Below, piece by piece: positions 42 through 28,158 of a DNA stretch of 32,000 bases. Location: positions 960,001 through 992,000 of the forward strand of contig NZ_CP019384.1 in the NCBI RefSeq assembly GCF_004102945.1. The letters run 5' to 3'. This DNA is from Candidatus Velamenicoccus archaeovorus. GTDB lineage: Bacteria; Omnitrophota; Gorgyraeia; Velamenicoccales; Velamenicoccaceae. Under the pieces are notes generated by a model. It searched no databases, was not told the DNA's origin, and saw only the letters and a list, made by a program, of their open reading frames with translations. Position numbers and translations under genes: made by a program. Every line of letters starts with the position of its first letter. Position 1 is the first letter of the stretch.

Positions 42-1085
42 TTATAAAGCGAGTCGGGCCATTAGACAGCGCCCTTTCTTTTTTAAATCCTTGGCACCAT
101 AAAAAAGATAAACCTGTCCACTATCCATAAAAACATGCGGCGAGTTAACAACCTTTGAGTCATACCCCTCTTCAGATCCTTTGGTTAGAATGGGATTATC
201 AATGTATTTTTCCCATTTTATGAGATCTTGGGAAAAAGCTAAGCCGATTCCATATTCATTAAAACGATTTTGACCTTCATAGAACGCGACATAGCTATCC
301 TCTAAGGGGAGGATGCTAACAATTAAAGCACTACTTTCATCCCATCCACCCTGACAACCGGGTTGAAGAATGGGCTCGCTATTTCTACGCCAGGAAAAAA
401 GATCTCTTGAAACGGCAAGCCCCGTTCTCACTTTTTTCCCATCAGAACCTCCGTAAAACAGAAAAAACTGTTCACCAAATTTTAGCACACAGGGTGAGAA
501 GACTCCGCAAGAATCCCAGGAGTGCTTATGACCAACCGCAAAAACAGGATTGCTGGTTTCAAATTGCCAATGAATCTTGTTCCTGGAGATAGCAATGCCT
601 ATAGCCCTTCCCTTTGCATGTTGAATGACCTGAGAGGAGGTCTTAGATAGCGATCTATACAATTTTCTATAAACACTCCCAGCTATTCTTTGTAAAGAAT
701 ATGGACAACAATTTACCCAATGCTTCATCAACCCATTCACATGTTTCTCGACAGCTTCAAAAAAAAGATAATCATTGTTATGATAAGACAGCCACGCAAC
801 AGCATCGATATTATGGTTCAAAACCCCCTGATGTTTTGAGGATATGACAGGGTTTCCTGGATATTTCATCCAATGTATCAAATCTCTAGAATACGCCAAT
901 CCAATTCCCCAGAGATTGGACTTCGTGCTACGCCCAGTGTAGAATAAAAAGGCATCTTTTCCTGGGGGGCGAAAAACAAAAGGACAATCCACCATCAAAT
1001 CATCCCAAGCACCCTTTCCTCCTACGTCTAGCACAGGAGTAGGGTGTCTGTTCCATTGGCCTCCTAGAAACGATGCTAACTTCAA
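42..1085 (-). CDS. Cytoplasmic beta-propeller glycosidase / glycoside-phosphorylase-like protein (GH130/GH43/GH32-type fold)
   Basis: 347-aa ORF with a reiterated blade signature ('WGIGLAYSRDLIHW', 'RTGLAVSRDLFSW', 'YGIGLAFSQDLIKW', each preceded by a W-D...F[LV]FY.G block). No signal peptide. Start is TTG at 1085 (plus-strand caa) with GAGGA 6 nt upstream. Family assigned from motif memory only. Confidence 0.5.
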   Translation of the reverse strand: MKLASFLGGQWNRHPTPVLDVGGKGAWDDLMVDCPFVFRPPGKDAFLFYTGRSTKSNLWGIGLAYSRDLIHWMKYPGNPVISSKHQGVLNHNIDAVAWLSYHNNDYLFFEAVEKHVNGLMKHWVNCCPYSLQRIAGSVYRKLYRSLSKTSSQVIQHAKGRAIGIAISRNKIHWQFETSNPVFAVGHKHSWDSCGVFSPCVLKFGEQFFLFYGGSDGKKVRTGLAVSRDLFSWRRNSEPILQPGCQGGWDESSALIVSILPLEDSYVAFYEGQNRFNEYGIGLAFSQDLIKWEKYIDNPILTKGSEEGYDSKVVNSPHVFMDSGQVYLFYGAKDLKKKGRCLMARLAL

Positions 1086-1094
1086 GTTAAATCC

Positions 1095-2585
1095 TCAAAA
1101 ATCCCCTAGAAGATATTTTTTAAAAACTATTCCATGCAAACAAAGGATGATAATTGAATACAAAAGTAGCCCCGTCACCACTAAAGAATAACAATGCCAT
1201 TTCCATGGAAAAAATAATAAAAACAGCATCCCCAATACAAAAAACCCCAAAGTCTTCAGCACTTTTTGAAGCCGAAATGGAAAAAAGTTTTTAGTGGAAT
1301 AAAAATAAAAAAAGAAAGTCAAAATATCTGCAGCAACTTTTGCAAAAGCAGCTCCCTTGATCGACAAAAATGGCACCAAAATCAAGTTTAAAACGACATT
1401 CGCCAGCGCAGTCATCACAGCAATTTTTCCGATCAGACCTTGTTGATCATAACACAAAAGACAACGGGAATACACTAGAGCCAATAACATCAACAGAGGC
1501 CACCAAATAAGAACTGCAAAAACAGGACCGCTCAAAGTGAATGCTTGGCCATAAATTAAAATCATCAAAGGAGTCGCCCAATAAGTTCCTAAAACAGCGA
1601 TTGGAAAAAACAAAAAAAACCCCGTGAGAATTGTCCAATAGATCACCGCTTTCATCGCGTGAGATGATTCATGCGCAGCTTTTGACATGATCGGGAGTAA
1701 CGCGTTAAAGTAAACCGTCAATGCAGTTATCATCAAAATGATCGGTCGGTAAGCAGCGTTATACAAACCGGCTGCACTCCCCCCTTTCCATAAAAATAAC
1801 AACATTGAATCAAAATAATGGATAACCCAAGCCATCAGGAGACTTAAACCCAGAGGAGCTGTGTCTCGAAGAGTCTTGCGAAAAAATTTCTTATCCCATA
1901 CAATAGCGAGGGAGCCAAATCTATTTCTGTAGAGTATAAACAAGGAAAATGTTGAACAAAGCCACGAAATATTAAATATTAAAGTGAAGATAAGTAGCTG
2001 CTGGTTTTCTCTCACAAAAAGGAAAATCCCGATCATAAAAAGAAAGGCGCGTAAAAAAACCGCTAATGCGACAAAAGCCATTTTTTCTAGACCCTGAAAA
2101 TACCAGTCCAGAAATAGAGCGGCAGGAATTAAGGCCAGACCATACACAAAAGTAATCGATTTCACGAAAAAGGGTTCATGGAGCAAATATAAAAATACAG
2201 CAAGAACGCATAGACTAAAAAAAGACAATAGAAGTCGGAGAGATATTACCCGATTGACGTAGAAATTGGTCCGGTCATGTATTGATCGTGCAACATTTCT
2301 TGCACCAAGAAAAGTCAAACCCATATTACTGAGATTCCAAAAAAACATAAAAACGATTTCTGCAAAAGCAACGATGCCAAAACCTTCCGGTCCCAAAATT
2401 CTGGCGGCTTGAACCATTGCTACAAAAAAACATATCGCAGCCAAGGCATTTCCAGAAAATAACCAAAACAAGTTAGAGAATATGTGTTTTTTTTGAATCA
2501 CGAATGCTTTATGTGCCATAGGATAAGGCACTAATCCATCCTCGGCATACACAGATTCTTTTTCTAATTCCTTCTTTGTATTCAT
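1095..2585 (-). CDS. Wzx-type polysaccharide flippase (MOP superfamily polytopic membrane protein)
   Basis: 496 aa, almost entirely hydrophobic helices (roughly 12-14 predicted by eye). Size and position within a glycan locus are typical of O-unit/EPS flippases. ATG at 2585. Confidence 0.7.
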   Translation of the reverse strand: MNTKKELEKESVYAEDGLVPYPMAHKAFVIQKKHIFSNLFWLFSGNALAAICFFVAMVQAARILGPEGFGIVAFAEIVFMFFWNLSNMGLTFLGARNVARSIHDRTNFYVNRVISLRLLLSFFSLCVLAVFLYLLHEPFFVKSITFVYGLALIPAALFLDWYFQGLEKMAFVALAVFLRAFLFMIGIFLFVRENQQLLIFTLIFNISWLCSTFSLFILYRNRFGSLAIVWDKKFFRKTLRDTAPLGLSLLMAWVIHYFDSMLLFLWKGGSAAGLYNAAYRPIILMITALTVYFNALLPIMSKAAHESSHAMKAVIYWTILTGFFLFFPIAVLGTYWATPLMILIYGQAFTLSGPVFAVLIWWPLLMLLALVYSRCLLCYDQQGLIGKIAVMTALANVVLNLILVPFLSIKGAAFAKVAADILTFFFYFYSTKNFFPFRLQKVLKTLGFFVLGMLFLLFFPWKWHCYSLVVTGLLLYSIIILCLHGIVFKKYLLGDF

Positions 2586-2613
2586 ATGCTATAATTCAAC
2601 AGTCTCACAGCCA

Positions 2614-4176
2614 TCAAGTCATTCTGGCGGCACGATTCGAGAAACGGCGGGAAAGATCTTTAGTCGCCGAAGCAAGTAACAGCAAAAAAGTAAGAAAATG
2701 TTTGAAAAATCGATAAAAAGTAATAGTCCACACCGCCTTAAGGTACTGTTTTCTATGCACTGATTTAGTATAGTTTCTAAAATAACGAAAAAAAGAAAAA
2801 AATGGATCTGCATAAAGTGGTATGGCCGTAAACTGAGCGTACAGAAAAGCAGCCAAAAAAGAGATATTTCGACGGTGGTGATTCAATTTGAAGCGTGGAT
2901 CAATAATTCGTTTATAAGGCTGACTTCCAAGATAGACATCATATTCATCTTTTTTTAAAGGAGGATGCACATATTCTTGATAAATCATCGTTCCTGGCAA
3001 TGGAACTGTAACAAAAAAACCGTAATGAGTAGCTTTGATCGCACGAGCTAATGCGATCGTTGCTTTAAGATCTTCTTCGGTTTCAGTCGGCGTATTGATC
3101 ATAAAATTTGCAAAAGTTCTTAACTTGTATTTTTTACAAATAGCATAAGCGTTATGAATCTGGTTAAGAGTTATCCCTTTCTTCATCAATTTTAGGATTC
3201 GTTCGGAGCCACTTTCAACCCCAAACTCCACTTGTATACACCCACTGCTGGCGACCATCTGTGCCATCTTTTCTGTAAAAATGTTGACTCGTGTTTGCAT
3301 GCCCCAGACAAGAGAATCAAGTTTTCGATGAACTAATCCATCGCAAAAGTCGCGAACACGCTGTTCCGAAACCGTAAAAGAGTCATCGTTAACAAAAAAA
3401 CTATCGATGCGGTAGCGGTTATAAAGAAATTCTAGCTCATCAAGAACATTGGGTATAGGCCGACATCGAAAGCGTTTCTTGTAGGTATGAACCGCCCATA
3501 GCGACGGATTTCCGCAATAAGTACACTGACAAGGGCATCCGCGCGTCGTTTGAACATCTATTCCAGCAAATATACTATAACGGATAATGCTTGTCCGCGG
3601 CTGGAGATAGAAATCCATATTTAAAAGGTCATAGGAAGGCATTGGCAAAATGCCAAGGTCTTCAAGAACGGCTCTTTTTGACGTCATAACGACTTCATCT
3701 CTATAATAGGCAATCCCTGGGACTTTGTGTACCTGTCCACCGAGCTTAAGAACCTGTAGTAGCTCCACGAGTGTCTCTTCGCCTTCCCCAAGCACTACAA
3801 AATCAAAAGGACTTTGAGGATAAAGAAAATCGCCTGGGTAAAATGTCGGGTGGTGTCCCCCTACTATCACTATTCCTTTATATCCCTGCTTCCTCAAATC
3901 TAAAGCCATGCGTAAAACACAGGAATATTCAGCACTTAAACAAGTAAAACCGACAAAAGAAGAGTTGGCAGCTAAAATTTGACTGACCGTTTCTTGCTCA
4001 ATCTTGCGTATATGCGTTTGTTTTCCAGCGTCCTTAATATCTACAATACAACAATCAAATCCTTTCAGTCGCAAATAAGACGCCAAATAAATACAAGGGA
4101 ATGGGACGATGGGTGAGCTAGCTCTCGTAGGCGGGCTAACCAAAACGATATCGATTAATCTATCAGTGTAGGTCAT
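2614..4176 (-). CDS. B12-binding-domain radical SAM enzyme (class B rSAM, methyltransferase-like) with hydrophobic C-terminal tail
   Basis: CX3CX2C cluster motif in 'TTRGCPCQCTYCGNP'. N-terminal Rossmann-like cobalamin-domain-type region ('VGFTCLSAEY', 'IVIVGGHHPTF', 'VVLGEGEETLVELL'). I place the start at ATG 4176 ('MTYTDRLIDIVLVSPP') rather than track start 4260, which would overlap the upstream gene by 98 nt. Confidence 0.8.
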   Translation of the reverse strand: MTYTDRLIDIVLVSPPTRASSPIVPFPCIYLASYLRLKGFDCCIVDIKDAGKQTHIRKIEQETVSQILAANSSFVGFTCLSAEYSCVLRMALDLRKQGYKGIVIVGGHHPTFYPGDFLYPQSPFDFVVLGEGEETLVELLQVLKLGGQVHKVPGIAYYRDEVVMTSKRAVLEDLGILPMPSYDLLNMDFYLQPRTSIIRYSIFAGIDVQTTRGCPCQCTYCGNPSLWAVHTYKKRFRCRPIPNVLDELEFLYNRYRIDSFFVNDDSFTVSEQRVRDFCDGLVHRKLDSLVWGMQTRVNIFTEKMAQMVASSGCIQVEFGVESGSERILKLMKKGITLNQIHNAYAICKKYKLRTFANFMINTPTETEEDLKATIALARAIKATHYGFFVTVPLPGTMIYQEYVHPPLKKDEYDVYLGSQPYKRIIDPRFKLNHHRRNISFLAAFLYAQFTAIPLYADPFFSFFRYFRNYTKSVHRKQYLKAVWTITFYRFFKHFLTFLLLLASATKDLSRRFSNRAARMT

Positions 4177-5353
4177 ATTTATAATAGCAGAAAGCACATG
4201 GATTGATTGTTTTGTCTCCGACCAATTCGCTGCGTCGCAATTCCTTTGCCCGCGGGCCATTCCATATCTGCGTAAGAAAATCCTGATTTAGATAGTTTCC
4301 AAGGACCGTATTTTCATACATGCGTTCTTCATAAAAAACTTTGTCATTGTCTGCGTGAAAATAAAAGGGTCGCCTTGTTCTGAAAAAGGGGCAAGCGCAC
4401 ACATCGCCATTATAGAAGATACAAACGCCGTGCCAAAGATGATAACACAAGCAATTTCTGAATGGCTTAATATTAGGCAATCTTAAGCGGATTCCTAACC
4501 TACGGGCTTTCTGGTGAGCTTGATTAAATAATTGTTCTTTAACTTCATTGTTTATCTCAAATATATTATTATCCTTTTCTTTTTTAACATGGACGATAAA
4601 TCCGCTAGCATTGATAAAATCAATTCCCAGGTCTTTGGCAAAATCGAGATAGTCAAGGATGTCACCGTAATTATCGCTTCTAAAGATAAAATTAAGGCCA
4701 AGTTGAAAGGCTTGTCGCTTATAAGCGGCCCTATACCGGGAAAACAAACGGATGCCCTCGACAGCCTTGTCGAAAGAGCTACCTTTTTTGATGTCTTCAT
4801 AACGTTGCCGGGAATGGGAATCCACTGAAATCAAAACGCTATCCACCCCTTCCCGAAAAGTCGTCTTGATCTTATTCTCGTCAATCAGACTGGCATTCGT
4901 AAAATATCCTGTTTTAATGCCGAAAGACTTAAAAAAATGATGGATGTCCCAGAATTCCGGGTTAAGGAAAGGTTCTCCTAACCCACCGACAAAATAAGTG
5001 CTGTAAATATATGGCAAAATATGCCCGAGCTTTTTAAGGTTTTTAAGAGAAACATTGCTTTTGGGAAGACCACCAAGAGCGGGATCGGTTTGGTAGAGCA
5101 CGCGTTCACAACCAGGACACCGCAAGTTACAAACCGTGCTAACTTCTACCATGAGAGTAATAGGAAAGTAGGGAACATTTTCTGGATGTCTATTACGAAA
5201 AATCAAATATTTAGCCACGTTAGACAACCTTAGGGGGGCTAAAAGATATCTAACTTTGACTGCGGAAGCAGCATCAAAACCAAAATATTTTTTAACCTGC
5301 CGAAAAATCCCGCTTCCCCGATATCGGTCAAAATTTTTGTCTTTATTGTTCAT
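4163..5353 (-). CDS. Radical SAM / SPASM-domain protein (paralogue A)
   Basis: 'VSTVCNLRCPGCE' CX3CX2C motif. Cys-rich C-terminus 'CLCYHLWHGVCIFYNGDVCACPFF...CAFCYY' typical of SPASM auxiliary-cluster domains. ATG at 5353. Confidence 0.8.
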   Translation of the reverse strand: MNNKDKNFDRYRGSGIFRQVKKYFGFDAASAVKVRYLLAPLRLSNVAKYLIFRNRHPENVPYFPITLMVEVSTVCNLRCPGCERVLYQTDPALGGLPKSNVSLKNLKKLGHILPYIYSTYFVGGLGEPFLNPEFWDIHHFFKSFGIKTGYFTNASLIDENKIKTTFREGVDSVLISVDSHSRQRYEDIKKGSSFDKAVEGIRLFSRYRAAYKRQAFQLGLNFIFRSDNYGDILDYLDFAKDLGIDFINASGFIVHVKKEKDNNIFEINNEVKEQLFNQAHQKARRLGIRLRLPNIKPFRNCLCYHLWHGVCIFYNGDVCACPFFRTRRPFYFHADNDKVFYEERMYENTVLGNYLNQDFLTQIWNGPRAKELRRSELVGDKTINPCAFCYYKYDLH

Positions 5354-5382
5354 GCCGTTTTAACCTTATGGTTACATCAATT

Positions 5383-6498
5383 TCATACCCGTCCTAATGT
5401 GTTAAAAGAACGACATCCAATACACATCGGATCTAAGGTGCCGGTTTTTTGAGGAACTCCATTTCGAAGAGCTTTGTATCGTGGTGAATTCCAGATTTCT
5501 GTGAAGGGTTTTTCAAAAATATTACCGAGGCAGTTCTTCCTTAAAAAATCTCTGCGATTAGCCATCATTACACCGCAACACGGCATGACATATCCTCCCA
5601 TCATAATGTAAGGTTGCACCCAGCACGAACACTGGGTAATTGGTGGCTGCATGATCGTGTCTCCTAGCGGAATGTCGATATCGCATTCATCTGCGATACG
5701 ATTAAGTTCTTTTAAATAATCATCACGTTTTTTTATAGATAGATGTTGTATTTCTTTAAAATCCAAGGTCCCCACGATATTAATAGTATTGCTGACATTC
5801 AGCTTCTTGATCAAACGAATAAAATCAGGCAGCTCTTGATAATTGTTTCCCATGATAACATAACGAAATGAAATTTCCGGCAATGGAGATTGGTATTTCT
5901 TTTTTAAGTCGTCAAATATCTTAAGGTTCTCTAGGACTTTATTAAATGAGGCACCGCGGCGTATCTCTTCATATGTTTTTGCAGTGGCGCCTTCCATAGA
6001 ACAGTAAATCCGCTCAACCCCCAATTTTATAACAGCTTCCATTTCATCTCTTTTAAGGTTTGTAAAACTTTCTACAAATTTTACAAAAACCCCCTTCTTC
6101 TTTGTGTATTCCAAAATCCGTATAAAGTCCTTATTGAGGAAAGAAGAACCTTCTCCTGTCGTATTGATCCACCACAATCCCGGAAATTGACTAAGGATAT
6201 GCTTGTATTCGTCAAAGCTCAGATCTCGATTTTCTTCACTCCAATAAGTATGTTCGCAATGGATGCACTTTAAATGGCAGCGAGTTGTAATTTCAACTTC
6301 GATTTCCCTTGGATAGGGCGCTAACTTCGGCCAGCGCTTATAAAAAATATGTGGGAGTCCCGGACCAACATTGGCAACGGTGGCTCGAGCAAAAATATAG
6401 CTTCGTAATTGCTTAAGGTCCCTCCTGCGAAAAAGAATATATCCCATATTGCGACAATTGCTAATGGCCTCTTCTTTAATATAATTCCATAATTTCAT
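5383..6498 (-). CDS. Radical SAM / SPASM-domain protein (paralogue B)
   Basis: 'TTRCHLKCIHCEH' CX3CX2C motif. C-terminal 'CSCWVQPYIMMGGYVMPCCG...CIGCRSF'. Shares the block 'YEEIRRGASFNKVLENL' with paralogue A ('YEDIKKGSSFDKAVEGI'). AAGGAG Shine-Dalgarno 7 nt upstream of ATG 6498. Confidence 0.8.
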   Translation of the reverse strand: MKLWNYIKEEAISNCRNMGYILFRRRDLKQLRSYIFARATVANVGPGLPHIFYKRWPKLAPYPREIEVEITTRCHLKCIHCEHTYWSEENRDLSFDEYKHILSQFPGLWWINTTGEGSSFLNKDFIRILEYTKKKGVFVKFVESFTNLKRDEMEAVIKLGVERIYCSMEGATAKTYEEIRRGASFNKVLENLKIFDDLKKKYQSPLPEISFRYVIMGNNYQELPDFIRLIKKLNVSNTINIVGTLDFKEIQHLSIKKRDDYLKELNRIADECDIDIPLGDTIMQPPITQCSCWVQPYIMMGGYVMPCCGVMMANRRDFLRKNCLGNIFEKPFTEIWNSPRYKALRNGVPQKTGTLDPMCIGCRSFNTLGRV

Positions 6499-6668
6499 TG
6501 GCTACTCCTTATTTTTATAGTGGGAAGATTTGAATCGGCTATACATAACCAATTTTCCTAAGGACATCTTTCTGTTCCTTATGCAGCCATAAATACTAGA
6601 AGCTCATGGCAGGTAAGGCGAGTATAAAACTTTCCTTAGCTAAAGACATAAAAAATGGTGGACATGTT

Positions 6669-8459
6669 TCACTTTGCGAGAAAATACACTATGAAAGAAC
6701 CAATTTGAATTCGTTCATATTCTTTTCTTTTGAACCAAGCGGGAGGACACTGCAAAATGCCGTTTTCATGAATACTAAAAATAACGACACAAGAGGCCGA
6801 GCCAGACAGAGTCTTATCATCTTGATGCTGCGGGCATATTCCAGTAAAAGTCGGAGGAACAAAAAAAGATGTCTGCGGCCTCCCACATTTTATTCTCAGG
6901 AATTCCTTAATAGCAAAAGCCGCTTCGCCTCTAAAGTTTTTTTCATCGTTAATGACCATGATGTTATCTTGCGGTCCTGTGTGTTCCTCTAAAAATGAGA
7001 ACAAAGCCTTGTTTTCCCTCCCTTCCTGTGCGAAAGCCCTAGCGCCTACAAATGACAGCATCAGTTTATAAACAACAAGACACACAGTAAGCCAAAATCC
7101 GAATCGATATAAAGAGAAGCCATGTTTGTTACGTCGTGTGGCACAAACGGCCCAATAAAGAATGGCCATAAAGATTCCCATGACAATGACTATGGCTACA
7201 GCAGAAAAACGTTTGAATAGTAAAAAATCCATTTTTTCAAAAAAACTTCGACTTATGAACAAATATCCTATCAAAACAAAAACCACTACGGAAGTCAGAA
7301 GAATCTTAATCAAGTTTTTTCTTTCAAAAGAAAAACGACTGTCATCTTTTCGTAGAAATTCTAGGAAAGATATCAGAAGCCCTGCATAACCTAACATGAG
7401 TGGCAAGATATACCGACCAAAGATACCGCAGCGAGCATAGATCATAAACTGTGGCACGATGATAAGTCCGAATAGAATCAACGAAGGCACTGCATTTGTG
7501 GTAAAACTTCGATCAATTCTTTTTGAAGAAAAAAATAAAAACAAAAACGCACAAAGTAAAATGACCAATCCTGCGCCAATCGTAGAAAATGAAAGACTAA
7601 CATCGATGGCCGTGATAGCCGCTCTGATGAATAACGACAGGTCGAAATGACTAATCCCGCCACCTTGCGCACCATAACCACCGAATCCTACGCTGGCTCC
7701 GATGATCAACAAAACCGAAATTGTAAAGATTAAGAGAATAAGAACGGCCCAAAAATTTGCTATCCATGCTTTTTGCCATGAAGTTCCATTGTGGAGACGA
7801 TAAGACCAAGCCATCAAATAAACAAAGGCAGGAATCATCAAGATGAAGCTTTCTTTTGATAAAGCTGAAAGAATGACGAAAACGACCATGGTACTCCGAA
7901 AACAAAATTTGTATCGAGGATGGCGAATGGCAAAAAGCATACAGACCCAAGAGGCCGCCAGAAGTAACATGGCGATATTCTCGTTAGGACCTAAGGACCA
8001 CCAAACGACGGCTTGGGGTCCCAGTAGAGTCAGTAAAACAAAAAGAATAGAATCGAGCCATGAAAATGATGTCAACCGACATCCGTAATAAAGTAAGAAT
8101 GACGTTAAGACGGCTAGAACTCCTGCGTAAAACAGCCACGTCGTGAAGTTTGCGCCGAGCCATTTCGTCAACAAAACTCTATGAATGAAATAAAAAGGTC
8201 TGAATCGATGACTTCCATTCAAATCTTTCCTAAACCACTTCGTAAATACGCTTCCCCACGTGTTCATTGAAAGATCTTCCTGGACACTAAGAATCTCATT
8301 GTCATCGGCCAAATGATAATCGGAAAACAAAGAACCGCTTCCGCCAAGGATGGCGCCCCAAAGCAAAACAAAAAACAAAGCTACAAAAAAATATTCGCCG
8401 CGTATGAATATGGCGGGAAAACTACGTTTTTGTGACTCAAATGCCTGCATGATCCCCAC
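6669..8459 (-). CDS. Large polytopic membrane protein, GT-C-like glycosyltransferase or Wzy-like polymerase candidate, with ~100-aa soluble C-terminal domain
   Basis: 596 aa with more than 10 hydrophobic segments. Acidic 'HLADDNEI' patch in the first predicted external loop, as in GT-C enzymes (ArnT/PMT type). Start ambiguous: GTG 8459 or ATG 8450. Overlaps the 3' end of the upstream SDR gene. Confidence 0.45.
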   Translation of the reverse strand: MGIMQAFESQKRSFPAIFIRGEYFFVALFFVLLWGAILGGSGSLFSDYHLADDNEILSVQEDLSMNTWGSVFTKWFRKDLNGSHRFRPFYFIHRVLLTKWLGANFTTWLFYAGVLAVLTSFLLYYGCRLTSFSWLDSILFVLLTLLGPQAVVWWSLGPNENIAMLLLAASWVCMLFAIRHPRYKFCFRSTMVVFVILSALSKESFILMIPAFVYLMAWSYRLHNGTSWQKAWIANFWAVLILLIFTISVLLIIGASVGFGGYGAQGGGISHFDLSLFIRAAITAIDVSLSFSTIGAGLVILLCAFLFLFFSSKRIDRSFTTNAVPSLILFGLIIVPQFMIYARCGIFGRYILPLMLGYAGLLISFLEFLRKDDSRFSFERKNLIKILLTSVVVFVLIGYLFISRSFFEKMDFLLFKRFSAVAIVIVMGIFMAILYWAVCATRRNKHGFSLYRFGFWLTVCLVVYKLMLSFVGARAFAQEGRENKALFSFLEEHTGPQDNIMVINDEKNFRGEAAFAIKEFLRIKCGRPQTSFFVPPTFTGICPQHQDDKTLSGSASCVVIFSIHENGILQCPPAWFKRKEYERIQIGSFIVYFLAK

Positions 8460-9408
8460 GATTCTTTCGATACCACGCGATCGTCTTTTTCAGACCCTCA
8501 TCCAAACCTACCCGTGGCCGCCACCGCAAAAGGATGTGAGCCTTCTTGTTATCACTGAAAAACCTGATAGCCTCTCCGGCCCGTTTAGGGATAGCTCCTT
8601 TCAGCAAAGAGATAGGATTCCCCACGAGTTTAACAACTTTTTGTGCGACATCGAAAATTGTATATTCGCGGCCGTTGCCGACATTGATGACCTCGCCGAG
8701 GCAAATCCCGAATCTGCGCGCTGCGCATATAAAAGCATCTACCACGTCACTGACGTAGTTAAATTCTCGTGTTTGGTCGCCCTCCGTCATCGGAAAATCT
8801 CTACGTTCCAGACAGTGGGCGATCAATGCGGGAATAAACATATCCTTGTCCTGTTGAGGTCCATATGTCAAAAAGGGCCTTAATGTCATTACGGGGAGGC
8901 CGAAGGATGAAAACATCATTTGACCATAATAGGTCGCGGCCACCTTGCTGGCGGAATAAGGAGATACGGGGGTTTCACGCTGACGCTCACGAAAAGGCAC
9001 GGGGCCATTGCCGTATTCTTCACATGTCCCGGTATTGATGAAGCATTTCAAACGCGGCAGTGCCTCCAGAGCGGCAGTAAGAAGGCTGACCGTTCCCCTG
9101 ACGTTGACATCCATCATCTCCTCAATCAATTCCGGCTGTCTGGCCGCATTACGCAATGCGGCCAAATGATAAATGAATGCGGGTTTTATTTTCTTAAGAC
9201 ATGAGACGACTTTTCGGAAATTCCGGATATCTCCTTCCCATACAGCAAGGCGCGAGACGACATCTTTCAGACGCGTATGGTTTGCGCCCTTTTTTAAAAA
9301 AACATGGACCTTTGCGCCGTCTTCTATGAGACGTTGCGTCAAATGGCTGCCGATAAAGCCGTCGGCGCCCGTCACAAAAACGACACGTCCTTTCAGTAAT
9401 GAACTCAT
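8437..9408 (-). CDS. NAD(P)-dependent sugar epimerase/reductase (extended SDR), candidate terminal enzyme of the CDP-dideoxyhexose branch
   Basis: 'VFVTGADGFIGSHL' Rossmann motif and 'YSASK' catalytic YxxxK. I prefer ATG 9408, which forms an ATGA overlap with the rfbF stop. ATG 9429 (track start) is also possible. Confidence 0.75.
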   Translation of the reverse strand: MSSLLKGRVVFVTGADGFIGSHLTQRLIEDGAKVHVFLKKGANHTRLKDVVSRLAVWEGDIRNFRKVVSCLKKIKPAFIYHLAALRNAARQPELIEEMMDVNVRGTVSLLTAALEALPRLKCFINTGTCEEYGNGPVPFRERQRETPVSPYSASKVAATYYGQMMFSSFGLPVMTLRPFLTYGPQQDKDMFIPALIAHCLERRDFPMTEGDQTREFNYVSDVVDAFICAARRFGICLGEVINVGNGREYTIFDVAQKVVKLVGNPISLLKGAIPKRAGEAIRFFSDNKKAHILLRWRPRVGLDEGLKKTIAWYRKNRGDHAGI

Positions 9409-10220
9409 GCGTCTTTCCAGATTTTCCATAGAGCTCGGCCCTCACGCCAATACTGATTAAGAAGGTCCATATTGCGCAAGGTATCCATGCATTGCCAGAA
9501 ACCGCGATGCTCATACATCATAAGTTCACGATCCCGAGTGAGGTTCTCAAGTACTTCTTTTTCGAGGGTACACGTATCGGCACCCGACAAATATTTAAAA
9601 ACTTTCTTGGAAAAGACAAAAAAACCGCCGTTGATAAAACCGCTGGATATCTGGGGTTTCTCGCTGAACCGGCTGATGCGATGATTTTTTACAACCAACT
9701 CGCCGAATCTTGCCGGGGGCCTTACACCCGTTATTGTTGCAATCTTTCTATGCTTAAAATGGAATTCCAACAGTTCCCCGAGATTGATATCCGCGACGCC
9801 ATCTCCATATGTCAACAGGAAAGTGTCGATGCCTGACAGATACGGCTGGACACGTTTGATGCGCGCGCCTGTCATAGCCGTAAGACCCGTTTGGACTAGC
9901 GTTACCTCCCAATCCTCTTCATCGTGAGTGCTATGAATCATGATATCTTCGTGGCTGCCAAGTTTCACTGTAAAATCGCAATTGTGGATACGATAATGAT
10001 AAAAAAACTCTTTAATAATGTCCCCCTTATAGCCCAAACAGATAATAAAGCGACGAAAACCATAATGCGCATATATCTTCATGATATGCCAAAGAATGGG
10101 TCGGTCGCCGATCGTTACCATCGGCTTGGGGATAAATTCAGTCTGCTCTCTCATACGGGTCCCAAATCCACCCGCTAGGATCACCACAGGAAATTCGGAA
10201 ATTTTGGGCATTTTATTCAT
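9405..10220 (-). CDS. rfbF: Glucose-1-phosphate cytidylyltransferase
   Basis: 'VVILAGGFGTRMREQTEFIPKPMVTIGDRPILWHIMKIYAHYGFRRFIICLGYKGDIIKEFF' is the characteristic RfbF/DdhA N-terminus. 271 aa fits the family. Confidence 0.85.
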   Translation of the reverse strand: MNKMPKISEFPVVILAGGFGTRMREQTEFIPKPMVTIGDRPILWHIMKIYAHYGFRRFIICLGYKGDIIKEFFYHYRIHNCDFTVKLGSHEDIMIHSTHDEEDWEVTLVQTGLTAMTGARIKRVQPYLSGIDTFLLTYGDGVADINLGELLEFHFKHRKIATITGVRPPARFGELVVKNHRISRFSEKPQISSGFINGGFFVFSKKVFKYLSGADTCTLEKEVLENLTRDRELMMYEHRGFWQCMDTLRNMDLLNQYWREGRALWKIWKDA

Positions 10221-11194
10221 ATGTCCATCCTCTCTTGAAAAGAGCCGCCTCCATGATTAAATTCGCTGCGGACGACAAATAGGGGGCGATGCTTAACTTC
10301 CATATAGAGCCTACCGATATATTCCCCAATAAGACCGAGAAAAAACAATTGAAAGCCGCCCAAAATCAGCATCGGCAACAGCGTCGAGGCCCAACCGGGC
10401 ACCTGATCATGGACCATTTTGACATACAAAACCCAGATAACTCCACCGATGGAAAAGACGCATAAAACTCCGCCAAGAATTGAAGCCATTCTCAAAGGAA
10501 CGTACGTAAATGAAACAATCCCGGAAAATGCCAAAGAAAAAAGCGACGTGATATTGAATTTTGTGACGCCGTCTCTCCGTGGTTCCCTCCGATAATAAAC
10601 AACAGCGTATCTGCTTTCCAGCTGCAGTATCATAGCCCGGATAAACCTGTTTCGTTCCGGAAGGCCATTAAACTCCTTTACCAATTCCTTCGACATGAGC
10701 CTGAAATCGCCGTGATTGTAAACGATTTCGACACCCATGGCTTGCAAACACTTATAGTAGGATTGGGAAAACCACCGTTTAAACAAACTGTCGGCCTTTC
10801 TGTCCTCTCTGACTCCCAAGACCAGGTCGTATCCCTTTTCATAATATGCGACCATTTCTTCTATCTTTTCCGGAGAATCCTGAAGATCGGCATCAATCGT
10901 GATAACCGCATCTCCGTTAGCATAAAATAACCCGGCCGAAAGAGACCCTTGGTAACCGAAATTACGCCTCAGAGCAATAATTCTGACGTGTTTGTCTGAC
11001 TCAAAGATGTGTTGCAGGACTTCAAGCGTCTGATCCGTTGAACCGTTGTCGACATAAACAATTTCAAACTGCGAGCATTTTTTGGATTGACGCAATCCTT
11101 CGCAGACATGCAGGAGCCGGCGATGAGTTGCATCCAGAACCTCTTTTTCATTGTGACAGGGTACAACGATACTCAGAAACTGGATTTTACGCAT
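10217..11194 (-). CDS. GT2 polyprenyl-phosphate glycosyltransferase (GtrB / ArnC / DPM1-like)
   Basis: 'LSIVVPCHNEKEVL', 'VDNGSTDQT' and 'ITIDADLQD' GT-A motifs. Two C-terminal TM helices and the family-typical 'GEYIGRLYMEVKHRPLFVV' tail. Confidence 0.8.
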   Translation of the reverse strand: MRKIQFLSIVVPCHNEKEVLDATHRRLLHVCEGLRQSKKCSQFEIVYVDNGSTDQTLEVLQHIFESDKHVRIIALRRNFGYQGSLSAGLFYANGDAVITIDADLQDSPEKIEEMVAYYEKGYDLVLGVREDRKADSLFKRWFSQSYYKCLQAMGVEIVYNHGDFRLMSKELVKEFNGLPERNRFIRAMILQLESRYAVVYYRREPRRDGVTKFNITSLFSLAFSGIVSFTYVPLRMASILGGVLCVFSIGGVIWVLYVKMVHDQVPGWASTLLPMLILGGFQLFFLGLIGEYIGRLYMEVKHRPLFVVRSEFNHGGGSFQERMDI

Positions 11195-11196
11195 GG

Positions 11197-12522
11197 TTAC
11201 CCCTTTTTAAAAGGCGCCATGAAAACAGAGAAAGATTCCTTGATATATCGGATCATTTTGTTGTCAAGCCCAGGGTAAACGCCAATCCAAAAAACCCGGT
11301 TCATAACAAAATCAGTATTTTTGAGGCTCCTGAAAACCCTGTGGCGCACGCCTTCAAAAGCCGGGTGACGGAGAATGTTTCCCGCAAACAACGGCCTGGT
11401 CGCAATGCGGTTTTTCTCAAGATGGGCGACGAGTTCGTCTTTCGTGAAAGGAGCCGTTTTTTTGACGCCAATCAGGAAACCAAACCAGCTTGGCCGAGAT
11501 CCCTTCGTTACCTGCGGCAAAATCAGATACTCTTCATATTGTCTTAATGCTTCATGAAGCAATCTAAAATTTTTCTGTCTCAAGCGTACAAATCCGGGCA
11601 ACTTCTTGAGTTGTGCAACGCCGACCGCGGCAGCCATATCAACGGGCTTAAGATTATATCCAAGATGGGAATAGATGTATTTGTGGTCATACCCTTTCGG
11701 CAACGACCCCATTTTCCAGCCAAAGCGGCAACCGCAGGTATTATCCTGTCCGGGTGCACACCAACAATCTCTGCCCCAGTCACGCAGAGACTCAAGTATC
11801 CTCTTGAATAACCCATCATTAGTGACGACAGCCCCGCCTTCGCCTGTGGTGATGTGATGCGCAGGATAAAAACTTAAAGTCCCCATGTCGCCGAAGGTCC
11901 CGACAGGCTTATCCCTGTAAGTAGCCCCCAAGGCATCGCACGCGTCTTCTATCAGAAATAGCCCGTGTTTTCTGGCGATCCGCATGACGGCTGCCAGATC
12001 AAAAGGATTGCCGAGCGTGTGTGCCATAATGATCGCACGCGTCTTTTTGCCGATAGCCTTCTCGAGCAAGCCAGGATCGACATTATAAGTTCCCAGAGCC
12101 ACATCAACGAAAACCGGAACAAGCCGGTTCTGAATAATAGGGGCGACGGTCGTTGGAAAAGAGGCCGCGAGAGTCAGAACTTCATCTCCGGGTTTCAGCC
12201 GCCTCTCTTTCAATAAAGGAGATGTCAGGGCTGAAACAGCCAATAGATTCGCCGAAGATCCCGAGTTCGTCAATACGGCGTAGCGGCATTTCAAATAGGC
12301 AGATATATCCTTGGCAAACCGATCGCCGTATCTGCCCAGCGTAAGCCAAAAATCAAGAGAACAATCTACAAGGGCGATCATCTCTTTTTCATCATAGACA
12401 CGGCCCGCATATGGAATGTGTGTCTGGCCGGGCACAAAGTGCTTCTTGCGCACCCTAAGCCGGTAGATATCCTTGACCAGCTTGAAAATTTTAGCGCGTA
12501 GCTTTTTTTCTTGAAAGGTCAT
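11197..12522 (-). CDS. rfbH: CDP-4-keto-6-deoxy-D-glucose-3-dehydrase (E1; DegT/DnrJ/EryC1-fold, PMP + [2Fe-2S])
   Basis: 441 aa. 'SFYPAHHITTGEGG' has His where aminotransferases carry the Schiff-base Lys. Hand count gives Cys spacing C-X57-C-X1-C-X7-C ('EDACDAL...RDCWCAPGQDNTCGCRF'), matching the unusual [2Fe-2S] motif reported for Yersinia E1. Confidence 0.85.
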   Translation of the reverse strand: MTFQEKKLRAKIFKLVKDIYRLRVRKKHFVPGQTHIPYAGRVYDEKEMIALVDCSLDFWLTLGRYGDRFAKDISAYLKCRYAVLTNSGSSANLLAVSALTSPLLKERRLKPGDEVLTLAASFPTTVAPIIQNRLVPVFVDVALGTYNVDPGLLEKAIGKKTRAIIMAHTLGNPFDLAAVMRIARKHGLFLIEDACDALGATYRDKPVGTFGDMGTLSFYPAHHITTGEGGAVVTNDGLFKRILESLRDWGRDCWCAPGQDNTCGCRFGWKMGSLPKGYDHKYIYSHLGYNLKPVDMAAAVGVAQLKKLPGFVRLRQKNFRLLHEALRQYEEYLILPQVTKGSRPSWFGFLIGVKKTAPFTKDELVAHLEKNRIATRPLFAGNILRHPAFEGVRHRVFRSLKNTDFVMNRVFWIGVYPGLDNKMIRYIKESFSVFMAPFKKG

Positions 12523-13489
12523 GACGCATCCAGTATGACGTGTACCAATCGATAGTCTCTTTCAATCCGTCCTTCAATGAATAAAGGGACTTCCACTCCA
12601 ACAGCCTTCCCGCTTTGGTCGCGCGAAGACTCTGATTGACGATCTCACCTCTGGCTGTATTTAGAATAAGCGGCTTCAAATCCTTTCGCCCCATAAGATC
12701 AAGAATAACTCTCACAAGTTCTTTGACTTTGATCTTTGTCTCATTGCCGAAATTAAAGGCCTGTCCCACAACGGCTTTGCTTCCCATTTTCTCGGCTAAA
12801 TGGATGTAAGCCCTGGCAGCATCCTTGACATAGAAATAATCCCTCACGTATTCCCCGTCGCTTCTAATGACAGGCCTTTCACCCAGATAAGCCGCACGTA
12901 TGGTCCCTGGAACGAGACGATTATAATTCACGTCGCCGCCCCCAAACAGGTTGCCGCAACGCGTCACACAAACAGGCAATTTGTAATGGTGGTGGTACAT
13001 CTGGGCAATCAGATCCGCACAGCTTTTGGATACATCATACGGATTCCTTCCAGCCAGCGGCGTCTCTTCGCCGTACGACAAACCACCGTGGTCCCCATAG
13101 GCCTTGTCGCTGGATGCTACGATGATCCGCCTGACGTGCCGGTGATGCCGACAGGCTTCTAAAAGCGACCACGTCCCCTTGATGTTGGATTCAAAGGTAG
13201 ACAAAGGACTCTGATTGGCTGTGCCGACAATTGTCTGGGCGGCGAGGTGAAAAACAAGCGTGATTTCATATTCATTGAGGATCCGTTCCACTAGAGAATA
13301 GTCCTCGACACACCCACGCACAATGGTTATTTGGGATGAAAGGCCATCGGTAAAAATCTTTGATTCCGGCACAAAATCCCTCACCAAACCGACTATCCTG
13401 GCTCCTTTTAACAATAGTTCTTGAGTCAGCCATGAACCCAATAAACCGGTGCAACCCGTGATGAAAACCTGCTCTTTATTCCAATGCAT
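12491..13489 (-). CDS. rfbG: CDP-glucose 4,6-dehydratase-like extended SDR
   Basis: 'VFITGCTGLLGSWLTQELL', 'SSDKAYG' and 'YDVSKSCADL' (YxxxK). Sits directly upstream of rfbH with a 32-nt overlap. Substrate assignment rests on context. Start set at ATG 13489 (GAGGTG upstream) instead of GTG 13495. Confidence 0.6.
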   Translation of the reverse strand: MHWNKEQVFITGCTGLLGSWLTQELLLKGARIVGLVRDFVPESKIFTDGLSSQITIVRGCVEDYSLVERILNEYEITLVFHLAAQTIVGTANQSPLSTFESNIKGTWSLLEACRHHRHVRRIIVASSDKAYGDHGGLSYGEETPLAGRNPYDVSKSCADLIAQMYHHHYKLPVCVTRCGNLFGGGDVNYNRLVPGTIRAAYLGERPVIRSDGEYVRDYFYVKDAARAYIHLAEKMGSKAVVGQAFNFGNETKIKVKELVRVILDLMGRKDLKPLILNTARGEIVNQSLRATKAGRLLEWKSLYSLKDGLKETIDWYTSYWMRHDLSRKKATR

Positions 13490-13518
13490 AGGCACCTCTT
13501 TTTAATCCGCTCGGACTC

Positions 13519-14928: not shown

Positions 14929-14929
14929 G

Positions 14930-16183: not shown

Positions 16184-16196
16184 CGTGTCGCTATCC

Positions 16197-17390: not shown

Positions 17391-17395
17391 AGGCG

Positions 17396-19538
<2,143 letters not shown>

Positions 19539-19542
<4 letters not shown>

Positions 19543-20996: not shown

Positions 20997-21654
20997 CTTT
21001 TTTCCCAAAAATAAACCTGAAGAACCTGACGGTGTCTTTCACGGGATGAATCGCGCTGTATTGACCGTCATAGACGGATGTGATAGGAACGGATTCAATC
21101 TTGAACCCCGCGCGCGCGACTTCCAGAAGCATCTCTGATTCGATTTCATATCGATCTGTGTTCAGGGAGATCGCCCGCAAGGCATCCATAGAAATAAGTC
21201 GAAAACCGCACTGGGTATCGGGAACGCGCTGACGGCACATCCTGGAGATCATAAAAGACATGAAGGCATTTGTCAGCTGTCTGATAAAAGGCATCCTCTT
21301 GGGCTTATGCATCCTGTTGCCGACCACAAGTCCAGGGGATTTCTCACGAAAACACCGGATAAACTGGTCGACGTCCGAAGGCAAATGCTGGCCATCTCCG
21401 TCCATGACGATCACGCCTTCATAAGCACGGGCCTTGAGGATCTCAAAGGCCTTGCGTAAAGAAGCGCCTTTGCCGAGGTTGCGCTCGTTAATGATGACTT
21501 CCGCGCCGTTGGCGTGCGCGAGCCTGGCTGTCTGGTCTATAGACCCGTCATCGATCGCCGTGACATCGAACCCCTTGGCCCTCAAGCTCATGACCAGCCA
21601 GCCGATCGTTTTTTCCTCGTTGAACGACGGAATAAGACAAACGAAAGCGCTCAT
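20986..21654 (-). CDS. Small soluble GT2 glycosyltransferase
   Basis: 'CLIPSFNEEKTIG', 'IDDGSIDQT' and 'VIVMDGDGQHLPSD' (DxD). Start placed at ATG 21654, which forms an ATGA overlap with the upstream stop, rather than 21684. Confidence 0.65.
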   Translation of the reverse strand: MSAFVCLIPSFNEEKTIGWLVMSLRAKGFDVTAIDDGSIDQTARLAHANGAEVIINERNLGKGASLRKAFEILKARAYEGVIVMDGDGQHLPSDVDQFIRCFREKSPGLVVGNRMHKPKRMPFIRQLTNAFMSFMISRMCRQRVPDTQCGFRLISMDALRAISLNTDRYEIESEMLLEVARAGFKIESVPITSVYDGQYSAIHPVKDTVRFFRFIFGKKDEK

Positions 21655-28123: not shown

Positions 28124-28158
28124 ATCGACCTCCGGTCCTAAGGTTTGGCCCATCCACC

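Follow-up and report, generated by a model that had tools for sequence, protein, structure and literature searches.

A three-enzyme radical-SAM cassette with a probable role in surface-glycan tailoring in Candidatus Velamenicoccus archaeovorus

Introduction

Radical-SAM enzymes are recognized by a CX3CX2C motif, which serves the SAM-binding [4Fe-4S] cluster, and by a partial TIM-barrel core. Most characterized SPASM enzymes mature peptides. A full SPASM domain is defined by the seven-cysteine motif CX9-15GX4C ... CX2CX5CX3C ... C, with two auxiliary clusters, and a twitch domain by an abbreviated C-terminal domain of about four cysteines (C...GX4C ... CX2C) with one auxiliary [4Fe-4S] cluster. 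The archetypal twitch-domain radical-SAM enzyme is BtrN, a protein of 250 aa that serves as the butirosin 2-deoxy-scyllo-inosamine (aminocyclitol) dehydrogenase. DesII is the TDP-4-amino-4,6-dideoxyglucose deaminase/dehydrogenase. AprD4 and MgmA, the methyl-coenzyme M reductase glutamine C-methylase, both have class-B architecture; AprD4 is not known to use cobalamin and performs no methylation. GenK, GenD1 and Fom3 are cobalamin-dependent C-methyltransferases that act on unactivated carbons, some of them on aminoglycoside sugars.

Here, three radical-SAM enzymes of Candidatus Velamenicoccus archaeovorus (Omnitrophota), an archaea-hunting bacterium, are compared with these systems. The window was a stretch of 32,000 nucleotides. 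No paper tying these radical-SAM families to surface glycans was found in the literature.

Results

A preliminary description of the window had reported three adjoining minus-strand radical-SAM genes, and an ORF check recovered three co-directional ORFs on that strand at exactly the reported coordinates, 2614-6498. All three products exceeded the Pfam gathering score for the Radical SAM superfamily (PF04055), so that the domain calls are far beyond chance, and their AF2 models superposed on radical-SAM structures. The motifs CPCQCTYC, CNLRCPGC and CHLKCIHC were all present, and their CX3CX2C cysteines were invariant in family alignments. The two SPASM-type proteins, enzyme B (4163-5353, minus strand, 396 aa) and enzyme A (5383-6498, minus strand, 371 aa), were mutual paralogues as described (25% identity, E 2e-28). 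No transmembrane segment was found in any of the three proteins.

The trio is part of a 21-gene glycan operon whose genes lie on one strand and overlap or are separated by at most 29 nt. The tight packing with CDP- and GDP-sugar genes that had been described holds with the sole exception of a 170-nt gap at 6499-6668. One flank is formed by a Wzx-type flippase (1095-2585, minus strand; Pfam Polysacc_synt, E 4.5e-32), as previously noted, and beyond it by a GH130-like beta-propeller protein, a candidate transferase/phosphorylase lacking any hydrophobic segment (42-1085, minus strand; Pfam Glyco_hydro_130, E 3.9e-16). The label "GT-C/polymerase-like" given to the other flank, a polytopic membrane protein of 596 aa with about 12 hydrophobic segments (6669-8459, minus strand), had no backing from Pfam or NCBIfam, neither of which gave a match even at E=10, and the protein is left without a family assignment. 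The minus strand continues with the CDP-hexose block (8437-13495), made up of an SDR (8437-9429; Pfam), the glucose-1-P cytidylyltransferase RfbF (9405-10220; NCBIfam 331.8 versus a cut-off of 300.25), a polyprenyl-P-sugar-type GT2 (10217-11194; Pfam), RfbH (11197-12522; NCBIfam 691.3 versus 423) and a 4,6-dehydratase-like SDR (12491-13495; Pfam). In the remainder of the operon (13519-23611, minus strand), Pfam detected a WbaP-like initiating transferase, GT4, GT9, GDP-fucose synthase (Fcl), GDP-mannose dehydratase (Gmd), ManC, GT2, a lipid A-type acyltransferase and an MGDG-synthase-like GT28.

The trio, Wzx and the GH130-like gene recur together in two related loci, L001 and L002. The adjoining Wzx was 50% identical in L002 and 38% in L001, and the GH130-like orthologues next to the trio were 48% and 35% identical, respectively; similar GH130-like genes were found in L005 and L006. 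In L002, the block to the left of the 170-nt gap matched at 48-78% and the right block was absent. In L067, the genes to the right of the gap (6669-13495) matched at 80-94% amino acid identity, with the 596-aa membrane protein at 91%, and the left genes at only 25-38%. Two paralogues of this membrane protein precede the trio in L001. By these identities, the gap coincides with a mosaic junction of two exchangeable gene blocks, and the trio is passed on as a unit together with its own Wzx flippase and GH130-like protein. The six genes at 42-8459 had a GC content of 38-42%, and the genes from 8437 on had 45-52%. A specific tie between the trio and the adjoining CDP-dideoxyhexose genes is not supported, because L002 carries the trio without RfbH or RfbF and L067 carries the CDP block with a different radical-SAM set. 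Nor is the cassette a rarity: related loci on contigs annotated as Deltaproteobacteria and Nitrospirae hold as many as four SPASM and three B12 radical-SAM enzymes. Enzyme B belongs to a narrow family of about 45 clusters (35% identity or higher), whose named clusters are annotated as Deltaproteobacteria, Nitrospirae or Thermodesulfobacteriota; the three contexts fetched (L005-L007) were all multi-radical-SAM glycan loci.

The enzyme A family comprised 192 clusters at E<=1e-30 in a representative library, and a genome scan located relatives in 105 loci across bacteria and archaea, many of them from anammox bacteria. Inspection of these neighbourhoods, which had been suggested as a check, revealed glycan genes in 70 of the 78 genome loci holding an enzyme A relative; as the trios of L001 and L002 also lie within glycan loci, the cassette was not found apart from glycan genes. 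Within four genes of the SPASM gene, these 78 loci contained GT4 (58 loci), a nucleotidyltransferase (44), a B12 radical-SAM enzyme (37) and an SDR (35). The recurring order was SPASM>B12>GT4>NTP>GT4>SDR, and the usual module consisted of a radical-SAM enzyme, a B12 radical-SAM enzyme, GT4, a sugar-1-P nucleotidyltransferase, a further GT4 and an NDP-hexose 4,6-dehydratase, this SDR resembling GDP-mannose- or dTDP-glucose-4,6-dehydratase. Fusions of family members to GT2 with methyltransferase, GT4 and Anp1/GT62-like domains retained the family motifs. A 5'-deoxyadenosine/MTA-nucleosidase-type gene adjoined SPASM genes in three loci, a GH14/42-like protein was encoded in 12, and housekeeping genes surrounded the family member in four (L039, L048, L060 and L066). 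Collectively, relatives of enzyme A in bacteria and archaea alike lie within the glycosylation machinery or are fused to parts of it.

The third enzyme of the trio carries the cobalamin-type N-terminal domain that had been recognized in the preliminary description. Its longest ORF, 2614-4260 on the minus strand, matched Pfam Radical_SAM (E 5.5e-17) and B12-binding (PF02310; E 1.4e-15, 57.6 bits versus a cut-off of 32.1). The start of the gene is most likely 4176, because the deposited BU251_04355 of this organism (520 aa) is 100% identical to the 2614-4176 product and a start at 4260 would create a 98-nt overlap with the upstream gene. The N-terminal Rossmann-like B12-binding domain is fused to the radical-SAM core, as in class B enzymes, and C214/C218/C221 were invariant in the family alignment. 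The AF2 model (pLDDT 91.8) had TsrM, MgmA, AprD4, CysS, OxsB and TokK as its best fold matches. The enzyme fell below every equivalog cut-off in NCBIfam, with ApyD, a RiPP enzyme, as its best partial match (170 bits versus 750) and the MJ_0865/MgmA-type model at 116 bits versus 360. Membership in the AprD4-family diol dehydratases (NF033070) was rejected at 65.9 bits versus 500. Relatives of this enzyme occur within glycan loci, and one carries a fused class I methyltransferase. These sequence relatives fit methylation and dehydration alike, and the use of cobalamin is a prediction.

Further partial matches of this enzyme, to HpnJ (135 bits versus 578), HpnR (66 versus 650) and a "lipid biosynthesis B12-binding/radical SAM" model (106 versus 360), would be compatible with the trio acting on a lipid of the same operon, such as the polyprenyl carrier, lipid A or another membrane lipid, and not on a sugar. 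The lipid A-type acyltransferase and MGDG-synthase-like genes of the operon and the many anammox loci in the family could be read in the same way. However, all three scores are far below cut-off, lipid-synthesis genes are not among the conserved neighbours (which comprise GT4, a nucleotidyltransferase, a 4,6-dehydratase and Wzx), the fusion partners are glycosyltransferases, and the three enzymes are free of membrane segments. A lipid substrate is improbable on this evidence.

Enzymes A and B matched both Pfam Radical_SAM (E 8.5e-14 and 6e-12) and SPASM (E 3.7e-11 and 5.8e-09). In family alignments, the invariant cysteines were C74/C78/C81, C290, C308, C359 and C362 in enzyme A, with C307 nearly invariant, and C75/C79/C82, C303, C321, C386 and C389 in enzyme B. 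Both tails follow a twitch-like CX11-12GX4C...CX2C pattern, and both proteins end soon after the CX2C. Of the SPASM tails previously ascribed to these proteins, the Pfam matches stood but the full seven-cysteine motif did not; because only four to five tail cysteines are conserved, the tails are twitch-like and a full SPASM domain with two auxiliary clusters was rejected. Consistent with the cysteine pattern, the profiles of both families matched BtrN with the CX2C aligned, which places them in the twitch subfamily. Each tail is a twitch domain of the BtrN kind, and its four cysteines form the predicted site of a single auxiliary cluster. Proteins of the A/B type also share a conserved N-terminal helical extension of about 60 residues.

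Fold searches with the paralogues (AF2 model of enzyme A, pLDDT 88.6) returned SuiB and SkfB alongside BlsE, viperin and DesII at TM 0.5-0.6, with anSME and EpeE also among the matches; in these model-based searches, sugar-acting and peptide-acting relatives ranked together. In profile searches of solved structures, BtrN and DesII were top for both paralogue families, with the peptide maturase SkfB between them for the enzyme A family (E 3.4e-07). The closest characterized relatives of the trio are thus BtrN/DesII and AprD4/MgmA and not precursor-linked peptide maturases. Peptide maturation of the RiPP type, by a cassette located in a glycan operon by chance, would suit the record of characterized SPASM enzymes, the SuiB, SkfB, anSME and EpeE fold matches and the ApyD match. 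The protease, ABC exporter and precursor gene whose absence had been noted were indeed not found in the operon, and Pfam detected no PqqD/RRE domain there. The trio genes overlap or lie 28-29 nt apart, and the sole ORF in the 170-nt gap (21 aa, 6502-6567) was conserved in no related locus. With the ApyD and StsB scores far below cut-off and the glycan context conserved across phyla, membership among RiPP radical-SAM maturases was rejected, and this alternative is highly improbable.

The best partial NCBIfam matches of the paralogues were models of W-cofactor oxidoreductase and metalloenzyme maturases (113-131 bits versus 380-400). The pair might accordingly be protein maturases of a locus partner, a glycosyltransferase or GH-like protein, as anSME is for sulfatases; GH-like neighbours are frequent (GH130-like here, GH14/42-like in 12 loci), and the glycosyltransferase fusions could equally represent an enzyme and its target. 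The maturase-model scores do not bear this out: TIGR04317 (130.8 bits versus 380) and TIGR04311 (115.7 versus 400) were both rejected. The window as a whole contained no tungsten or molybdenum oxidoreductase. Moreover, partner families differ between loci while the link to a nucleotidyltransferase and a 4,6-dehydratase persists, and the best alignment of the twitch region is with BtrN, which dehydrogenates a small molecule. Protein maturation by the pair is therefore unlikely, at a small fraction of the overall probability.

Discussion

Collectively, these data suggest that the trio are probably soluble cytoplasmic radical-SAM enzymes that tailor sugars in an O-antigen-like surface glycan whose export depends on Wzx. 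The unusual sugar modification proposed in the preliminary description is well supported as glycan tailoring; the chemistry and the substrate level are predictions. Each enzyme would cleave SAM reductively, and the resulting 5'-deoxyadenosyl radical would take hydrogen from a carbon atom of the sugar in a diphosphate-linked substrate. This substrate could be an NDP-hexose, as a rule one made by the nucleotidyltransferase and 4,6-dehydratase that are inherited alongside, or a polyprenyl-PP-linked sugar derived from it. The glycosyltransferase fusions and the co-inheritance of Wzx fit either; an NDP-sugar is favoured over a lipid-linked glycan because of the linkage to the nucleotidyltransferase and dehydratase. 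In the twitch enzymes, an electron may pass to the auxiliary cluster for alcohol-to-ketone oxidation, as in BtrN-type enzymes, or hydrogen may be returned for epimerization. The class-B enzyme may use methylcobalamin to methylate an unactivated sugar carbon or, less likely, catalyze AprD4-like diol dehydration. The adjoining transferases would then build the modified unit into the repeat, and the co-evolving Wzx would export it.

The trio points to a radical route for surface-sugar modification, by families that accompany sugar-transferring enzymes in anaerobic bacteria and archaea and in some cases form fusions with them. More tentatively, and with the balance of probability somewhat against it, these families may constitute a widespread, unrecognized radical-SAM branch of surface-glycan biosynthesis in anaerobic bacteria and archaea that makes C-modified sugars. 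Such a branch would consist of a BtrN-like twitch family, often with class-B enzymes, tied to NDP-hexose 4,6-dehydratases and lying next to glycosyltransferases or fused with them; among its lineages are Omnitrophota, CPR, anammox Planctomycetes, Nitrospirota, methanogens, Asgard and DPANN. If so, its products would be C-methyl, epimerized, oxidized and deoxy sugars, and C-modified sugars may have been overlooked or taken for O-methyl sugars in mass-spectrometric glycan analyses. The S-layer glycan of Kuenenia contains a 174-Da "dimethylated deoxyhexose" whose exact sugar was left undetermined (PMC5088730), and this sugar would be one possible case.

Comparison with known systems

The peptide- and protein-modifying enzymes anSME, SuiB, SkfB and PqqE share the Pfam Radical_SAM and SPASM architecture of the paralogues and appear among the fold matches, but they have the seven-cysteine motif, two auxiliary clusters and a peptide or protein substrate, whereas the trio paralogues have four to five tail cysteines and no peptide partner was found beside them. 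GenK, GenD1 and Fom3, likened here by description, have the class-B architecture of the B12 enzyme but belong to secondary metabolism. Among solved structures, AprD4 (E 4.6e-37) and MgmA (E 1.9e-37) come closest to the B12 enzyme by profile and also match in fold, and AprD4, the apramycin C3' diol dehydratase, is a sugar-acting enzyme of class-B architecture; the B12 enzyme differs in an extra helical C terminus of about 80 residues and in NCBIfam scores far below the family cut-offs. DesII, whose radical-SAM chemistry is directed at a nucleotide-linked 6-deoxyhexose, resembles both paralogues in sequence (E 1e-06 and 5e-04) and fold, although the match is limited to the radical-SAM core of a protein of about 490 aa with another C-terminal part and a role in macrolide sugar biosynthesis. 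BtrN lacks the N-terminal helical extension, has low identity to the paralogues and uses a free aminocyclitol as its substrate; its setting is an antibiotic pathway and not a surface-glycan locus with nucleotide-sugar genes. It is nevertheless the best solved match for both paralogue family profiles (E 4.8e-13 and 7.6e-06), and it shares with them a C-terminal twitch region whose CX2C aligns with their own, the cysteine set of a single auxiliary cluster and a carbohydrate-like substrate.

Three adjacent radical-SAM genes and their motifs

Three adjacent minus-strand ORFs scored above the Pfam gathering thresholds for radical-SAM (rSAM) enzymes: Radical_SAM plus B12-binding at 2614-4260 (the longest ORF), and Radical_SAM plus SPASM at both 4163-5353 (SPASM-B) and 5383-6498 (SPASM-A). 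As the preliminary description had read from the sequence, each carries a CX3CX2C string, and its cysteines are invariant in an alignment of that protein's relatives. From its second ATG, the product of the 2614-4260 ORF is 100% identical to BU251_04355, a 520-aa protein of Candidatus Velamenicoccus archaeovorus. Because the identity begins at this codon, the gene was assigned a start at 4176 rather than 4260, giving a 14-nt overlap with its upstream neighbor. No hydrophobic segment in any of the three proteins reached the threshold for a transmembrane segment, and membrane anchoring of the enzymes was rejected on this ground.

The SPASM-A and SPASM-B proteins are paralogues (25% identity, E 2e-28), as had been proposed; the full SPASM tails attributed to them did not hold. 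In family alignments, the only cysteines conserved in the C-terminal domain were C290, C307/C308, C359 and C362 for SPASM-A and C303, C321, C386 and C389 for SPASM-B, both following a CX11-12GX4C...CX2C pattern. This reduced set rules out a full SPASM domain, and the tails match a twitch arrangement with one predicted auxiliary cluster.

The trio lies in the distal part of a glycan operon

The trio was found in the distal portion of a cluster of 21 genes, all on one strand and transcribed from 23611 down to 42, in which neighboring genes overlap or are separated by at most 29 nt, except for a 170-nt gap at 6499-6668. As annotated with Pfam and NCBIfam, the minus-strand operon begins with an MGDG-synthase-like GT28, a lipid A-type acyltransferase, a GT2, ManC and Gmd, followed by Fcl, GT9, GT4 and a WbaP-like initiating transferase. 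Next come a 4,6-dehydratase-like SDR, RfbH, a polyprenyl-phosphate-sugar-type GT2, RfbF and an SDR; the 3' part encodes a 596-aa membrane protein, the three rSAM enzymes, Wzx and a GH130-like protein. RfbH (11197-12522, minus strand; CDP-6-deoxy-4-keto-hexose 3-dehydrase type) and RfbF both scored above their NCBIfam equivalog cut-offs. Among the ORFs annotated in the window, no E3/RfbI-type flavin and [2Fe-2S] reductase was detected. These annotations bear out the earlier claim that the trio is packed with Wzx, CDP-dideoxyhexose and GDP-fucose genes.

The GH130-like beta-propeller protein (42-1085, minus strand) lacks a hydrophobic segment, and its gene is conserved together with the trio. 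Other proteins of GH fold (GH14/42-like, WbsX/GH99-like) recur across related loci. These proteins may be transferases or phosphorylases rather than hydrolases. Beyond the GH130-like stop, a ribosome-binding site and ATG at position 29 of the minus strand open an ORF ('MVYIRCDLC...') that exits the left edge; the operon is therefore truncated by the window. This ORF resembles none in the related loci. In one of these, L002, genes for GT4, SDR and a nucleotidyltransferase come after the corresponding position. Exact-protein look-ups with the GH130-like protein and BU251_04355 yielded no record that extends the sequence leftwards. The locus tags sought for expression data were absent from the supplements of PMC12583861.

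Outside the operon, the minus-strand ORF at 25605-26129 encodes a protein of 174 aa that is without a Pfam match and whose N-terminal half is extremely rich in Arg and Lys; it adjoins a gene for a 23S rRNA-intervening-sequence-type protein (25063-25428). A minus-strand gene at 27041-28153, upstream of a GH57 gene (28848-30401), encodes a ParA/MinD-type ATPase that carries a glycogen-binding AMPK1_CBM domain fused at its C-terminus.

Nearest relatives and the peptide alternative

None of the three enzymes reached an NCBIfam equivalog cut-off. The best partial matches of the paralogues were to metallo-cofactor maturase models (113-131 bits versus cut-offs of 380-400), and those of the B12 enzyme were to ApyD, BchE and HpnJ (135-170 bits versus 481-750). 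Among solved structures, BtrN was the best relative of both paralogue family profiles (E 4.8e-13 and 7.6e-06), its twitch region and CX2C aligning with both families, and DesII was among the top matches for both. For the B12-domain family, the glutamine C-methylase MgmA and the sugar diol dehydratase AprD4 were equally near (E about 1e-37). AF2 models were confident (pLDDT 88.6 and 91.8), and fold searches scored sugar-, nucleotide- and peptide-acting rSAM enzymes alike. As judged from the predicted models, such searches settle the rSAM class, not the class of substrate.

The possibility that the trio modifies a peptide was weighed against the content of the operon. The gaps between genes in the trio region are too short for a precursor gene, and the sole small intergenic ORF (21 aa, 6502-6567, in the 170-nt gap) was rejected as a precursor because none of 89 related loci contains a counterpart. 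A Pfam search of the operon detected no domain of an RRE, a protease or an exporter. The absence of a precursor, protease and exporter noted previously was thus confirmed.

The trio is inherited in a mosaic glycan locus

In the comparison of related loci, the full trio was found in L002 and in L001, the latter from a groundwater MAG labelled Deltaproteobacteria; both are within glycan loci and have extra rSAM genes. Identity to the window in these two is 74-78% for SPASM-A, 33-67% for SPASM-B and 61-69% for the B12 enzyme; Wzx is also kept, at 38-50%, as is the GH130-like gene, at 35-48%. L002 shares flanking Fcl, GT9, GT4 and WbaP-like genes with the window at 51-70% and the rSAM/Wzx/GH130 block at 48-78%, without the CDP-hexose block. 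The Omnitrophota locus L067 is 80-94% identical to the window at the amino acid level from the 4,6-dehydratase-like SDR through RfbH, GT2, RfbF and SDR to the 596-aa protein. Beyond this protein it encodes a different SPASM enzyme (38%), B12 enzyme (25%) and Wzx (38%), and SPASM-B is absent.

The six distal genes of the window (42-8459) have a GC content of 38-42%, versus 45-52% for the rest (8437-23611). This split, and the matching of L002 and L067 to different halves of the operon, indicate by comparison of sequences that modules have been exchanged within the glycan locus. From the sharing patterns of L067 and L002, the rSAM/Wzx/GH130 block is an exchangeable module bounded at the 170-nt gap. 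Dependence of the trio on the CDP-dideoxyhexose genes was rejected, since L002 keeps the trio but lacks these genes, and in L067 they are accompanied by a different rSAM set; the trio is thus independent of these genes.

The 596-aa protein (6669-8459, minus strand) is polytopic: about 12 hydrophobic segments precede a C-terminal soluble part of about 120 residues. Searches of Pfam and NCBIfam at cut-offs as loose as E=10 gave no match, and the protein does not resemble the PMT_2 protein of L002; a counterpart in L067 is 91% identical, and L001 has two copies. The earlier label of a GT-C/polymerase-like protein is therefore only tentative, and the protein may be the polymerase or ligase that is otherwise missing.

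Related rSAM families recur in glycan loci

Inspection of the neighborhoods of the closest relatives extended the glycan association well beyond this genome. At E<=1e-30, a search of 1.84 billion representatives placed 192 clusters in the SPASM-A family. A genome scan gave 105 loci, of which 80 were kept and their ORFs called and clustered; a SPASM gene was called in 78. The bacteria include Omnitrophota, Patescibacteria, anammox Planctomycetes, Nitrospirota, Elusimicrobia, Desulfobacterota-type taxa and Chloroflexota, and the archaea include Methanoperedens, Methanospirillum stamsii Pt1, Hadarchaeota, Bathyarchaeota, Heimdallarchaeota and Micrarchaeia. Glycan families were present in 70 of the 78 loci. 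Half of the eight others were short contigs (4-9 genes called). The remaining four offer no obvious glycan context: L048 and L060 place the SPASM-A relative among housekeeping genes, and in L039 and L066 no glycan family was recognised.

Within four genes of the SPASM gene, a GT4 was found in 58 of the 78 loci, a sugar-1-P nucleotidyltransferase of about 245 aa in 44, a B12-type rSAM in 37 and an SDR in 35. The gene order SPASM>B12>GT4>NTP>GT4>SDR recurred in at least nine loci, its SDR being GDP-mannose- or dTDP-glucose-4,6-dehydratase-like. L010 provides an example at 9944-16380, with an SDR of the GDP-mannose-4,6-dehydratase-like kind. Further partners included a GH14/42-like protein (12 loci), O-carbamoyltransferases and methyltransferases. 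SPASM-A relatives were also fused to GT2 plus a class I methyltransferase, to GT4, to Anp1/GT62-like glycosyltransferase domains, or to an aldo-keto reductase plus ferredoxin; CX3CX2CE, CX11-12GX4C and the terminal CX2C were kept in every glycosyltransferase fusion checked. One relative of the B12 enzyme was fused to a class I methyltransferase, and others sit in glycan loci. The SPASM-B family is narrow; three of its loci, L005-L007, belong to glycan biosynthesis and combine as many as four SPASM and three B12 rSAM genes with DUF362-ferredoxin, GT9, DUF218 and Wzx, and in L005 and L006 also with GH130/GH43-like proteins. Members of the SPASM-A family interrupted by intein or LAGLIDADG homing-endonuclease domains include P0397, P0419 and P0449.

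A PNP_UDP_1 nucleosidase gene adjoins SPASM genes in three glycan loci (L022, 7824-8639; L036, 9077-9898; L043, 1284-2105), lying directly between two SPASM rSAM genes in L036 and L043. All three are of the MTA/SAH/5'-deoxyadenosine nucleosidase type. Enzymes of this type clear 5'-deoxyadenosine, and their position would fit a role in disposing of this rSAM by-product. DUF362 proteins adjoin SPASM rSAM enzymes in L004 (11176-12123), L005 (2420-3550), L006 (1572-2705) and L013 (11122-12267), with weak or faint ferredoxin (Fer4) matches in L005 and L006. They are candidates for a dedicated electron donor; none was found within the window.

Collectively, gene context, modular inheritance with the flippase and glycosyltransferase fusions support the proposed assignment of the trio to a surface-glycan pathway. 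As read from these genomes, the cassette is one instance of a broad pattern and not unique to this organism, a distribution that adds to rather than subtracts from its interest.

Proposed chemistry and substrate

In the proposed mechanism, a 5'-deoxyadenosyl radical would take hydrogen from one of the sugar carbons in a substrate linked to diphosphate. For the twitch enzymes, the reaction may be a BtrN-like oxidation or an epimerisation, and for the class-B B12 enzyme a C-methylation, with AprD4-like dehydration less likely. Linkage to nucleotidyltransferase and 4,6-dehydratase genes and the predicted solubility of the proteins favor NDP-sugar substrates; the glycosyltransferase fusions and co-inheritance with Wzx are compatible with a lipid-linked unit as well.

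According to PMC5088730, methylated HexNAc occurs in the S-layer O-glycan of Kuenenia stuttgartiensis beside an unidentified residue of 174 Da, described there as a 'putative dimethylated deoxyhexose' with no positions assigned to its methyl groups. In Kuenenia, loci L049 and L074 encode a SPASM-A family enzyme, a 4,6-dehydratase-type SDR and two to three B12-type rSAM enzymes, with a nucleotidyltransferase also present in L074. The link between this residue and the gene content of these loci is a correlation only.

Significance and comparison with known systems

Candidatus Velamenicoccus archaeovorus, a member of the Omnitrophota, is described in PMC13153191 as a predatory epibiont of archaea. 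Conserved gene order, flippase co-inheritance and glycosyltransferase fusion tie these rSAM families to surface-glycan assembly in lineages that include many unculturable ones. If this reading is correct, envelopes of anaerobes would bear oxygen-independent sugar modifications, among them that of an archaea predator whose surface mediates contact with prey, and the families would be a source of new enzymes with which to functionalise C-H bonds in carbohydrates. The recurrent module of rSAM, B12-rSAM, GT4, nucleotidyltransferase, GT4 and dehydratase comprises six genes, a size suited to a heterologous host.

No description of SPASM or B12 rSAM enzymes in surface-glycan loci was found in the searchable full text, which included a 2022 review of cobalamin-dependent rSAM enzymes and the RadicalSAM.org paper; coverage was incomplete, and an earlier notice is possible. 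Within this scope, the view that a three-rSAM glycan module is uncharacterised stands.

To our knowledge, rSAM chemistry on sugars has been described almost solely for antibiotic pathways. There, sugar tailoring by BtrN, DesII and AprD4 is established, and GenK, GenD1 and Fom3 provide examples of cobalamin-dependent methylases. The rSAM superfamily and its general chemistry are known already; what is new is the biological setting of these uncharacterised subfamilies, and their fusions to glycosyltransferases are, as far as could be found, without earlier description.
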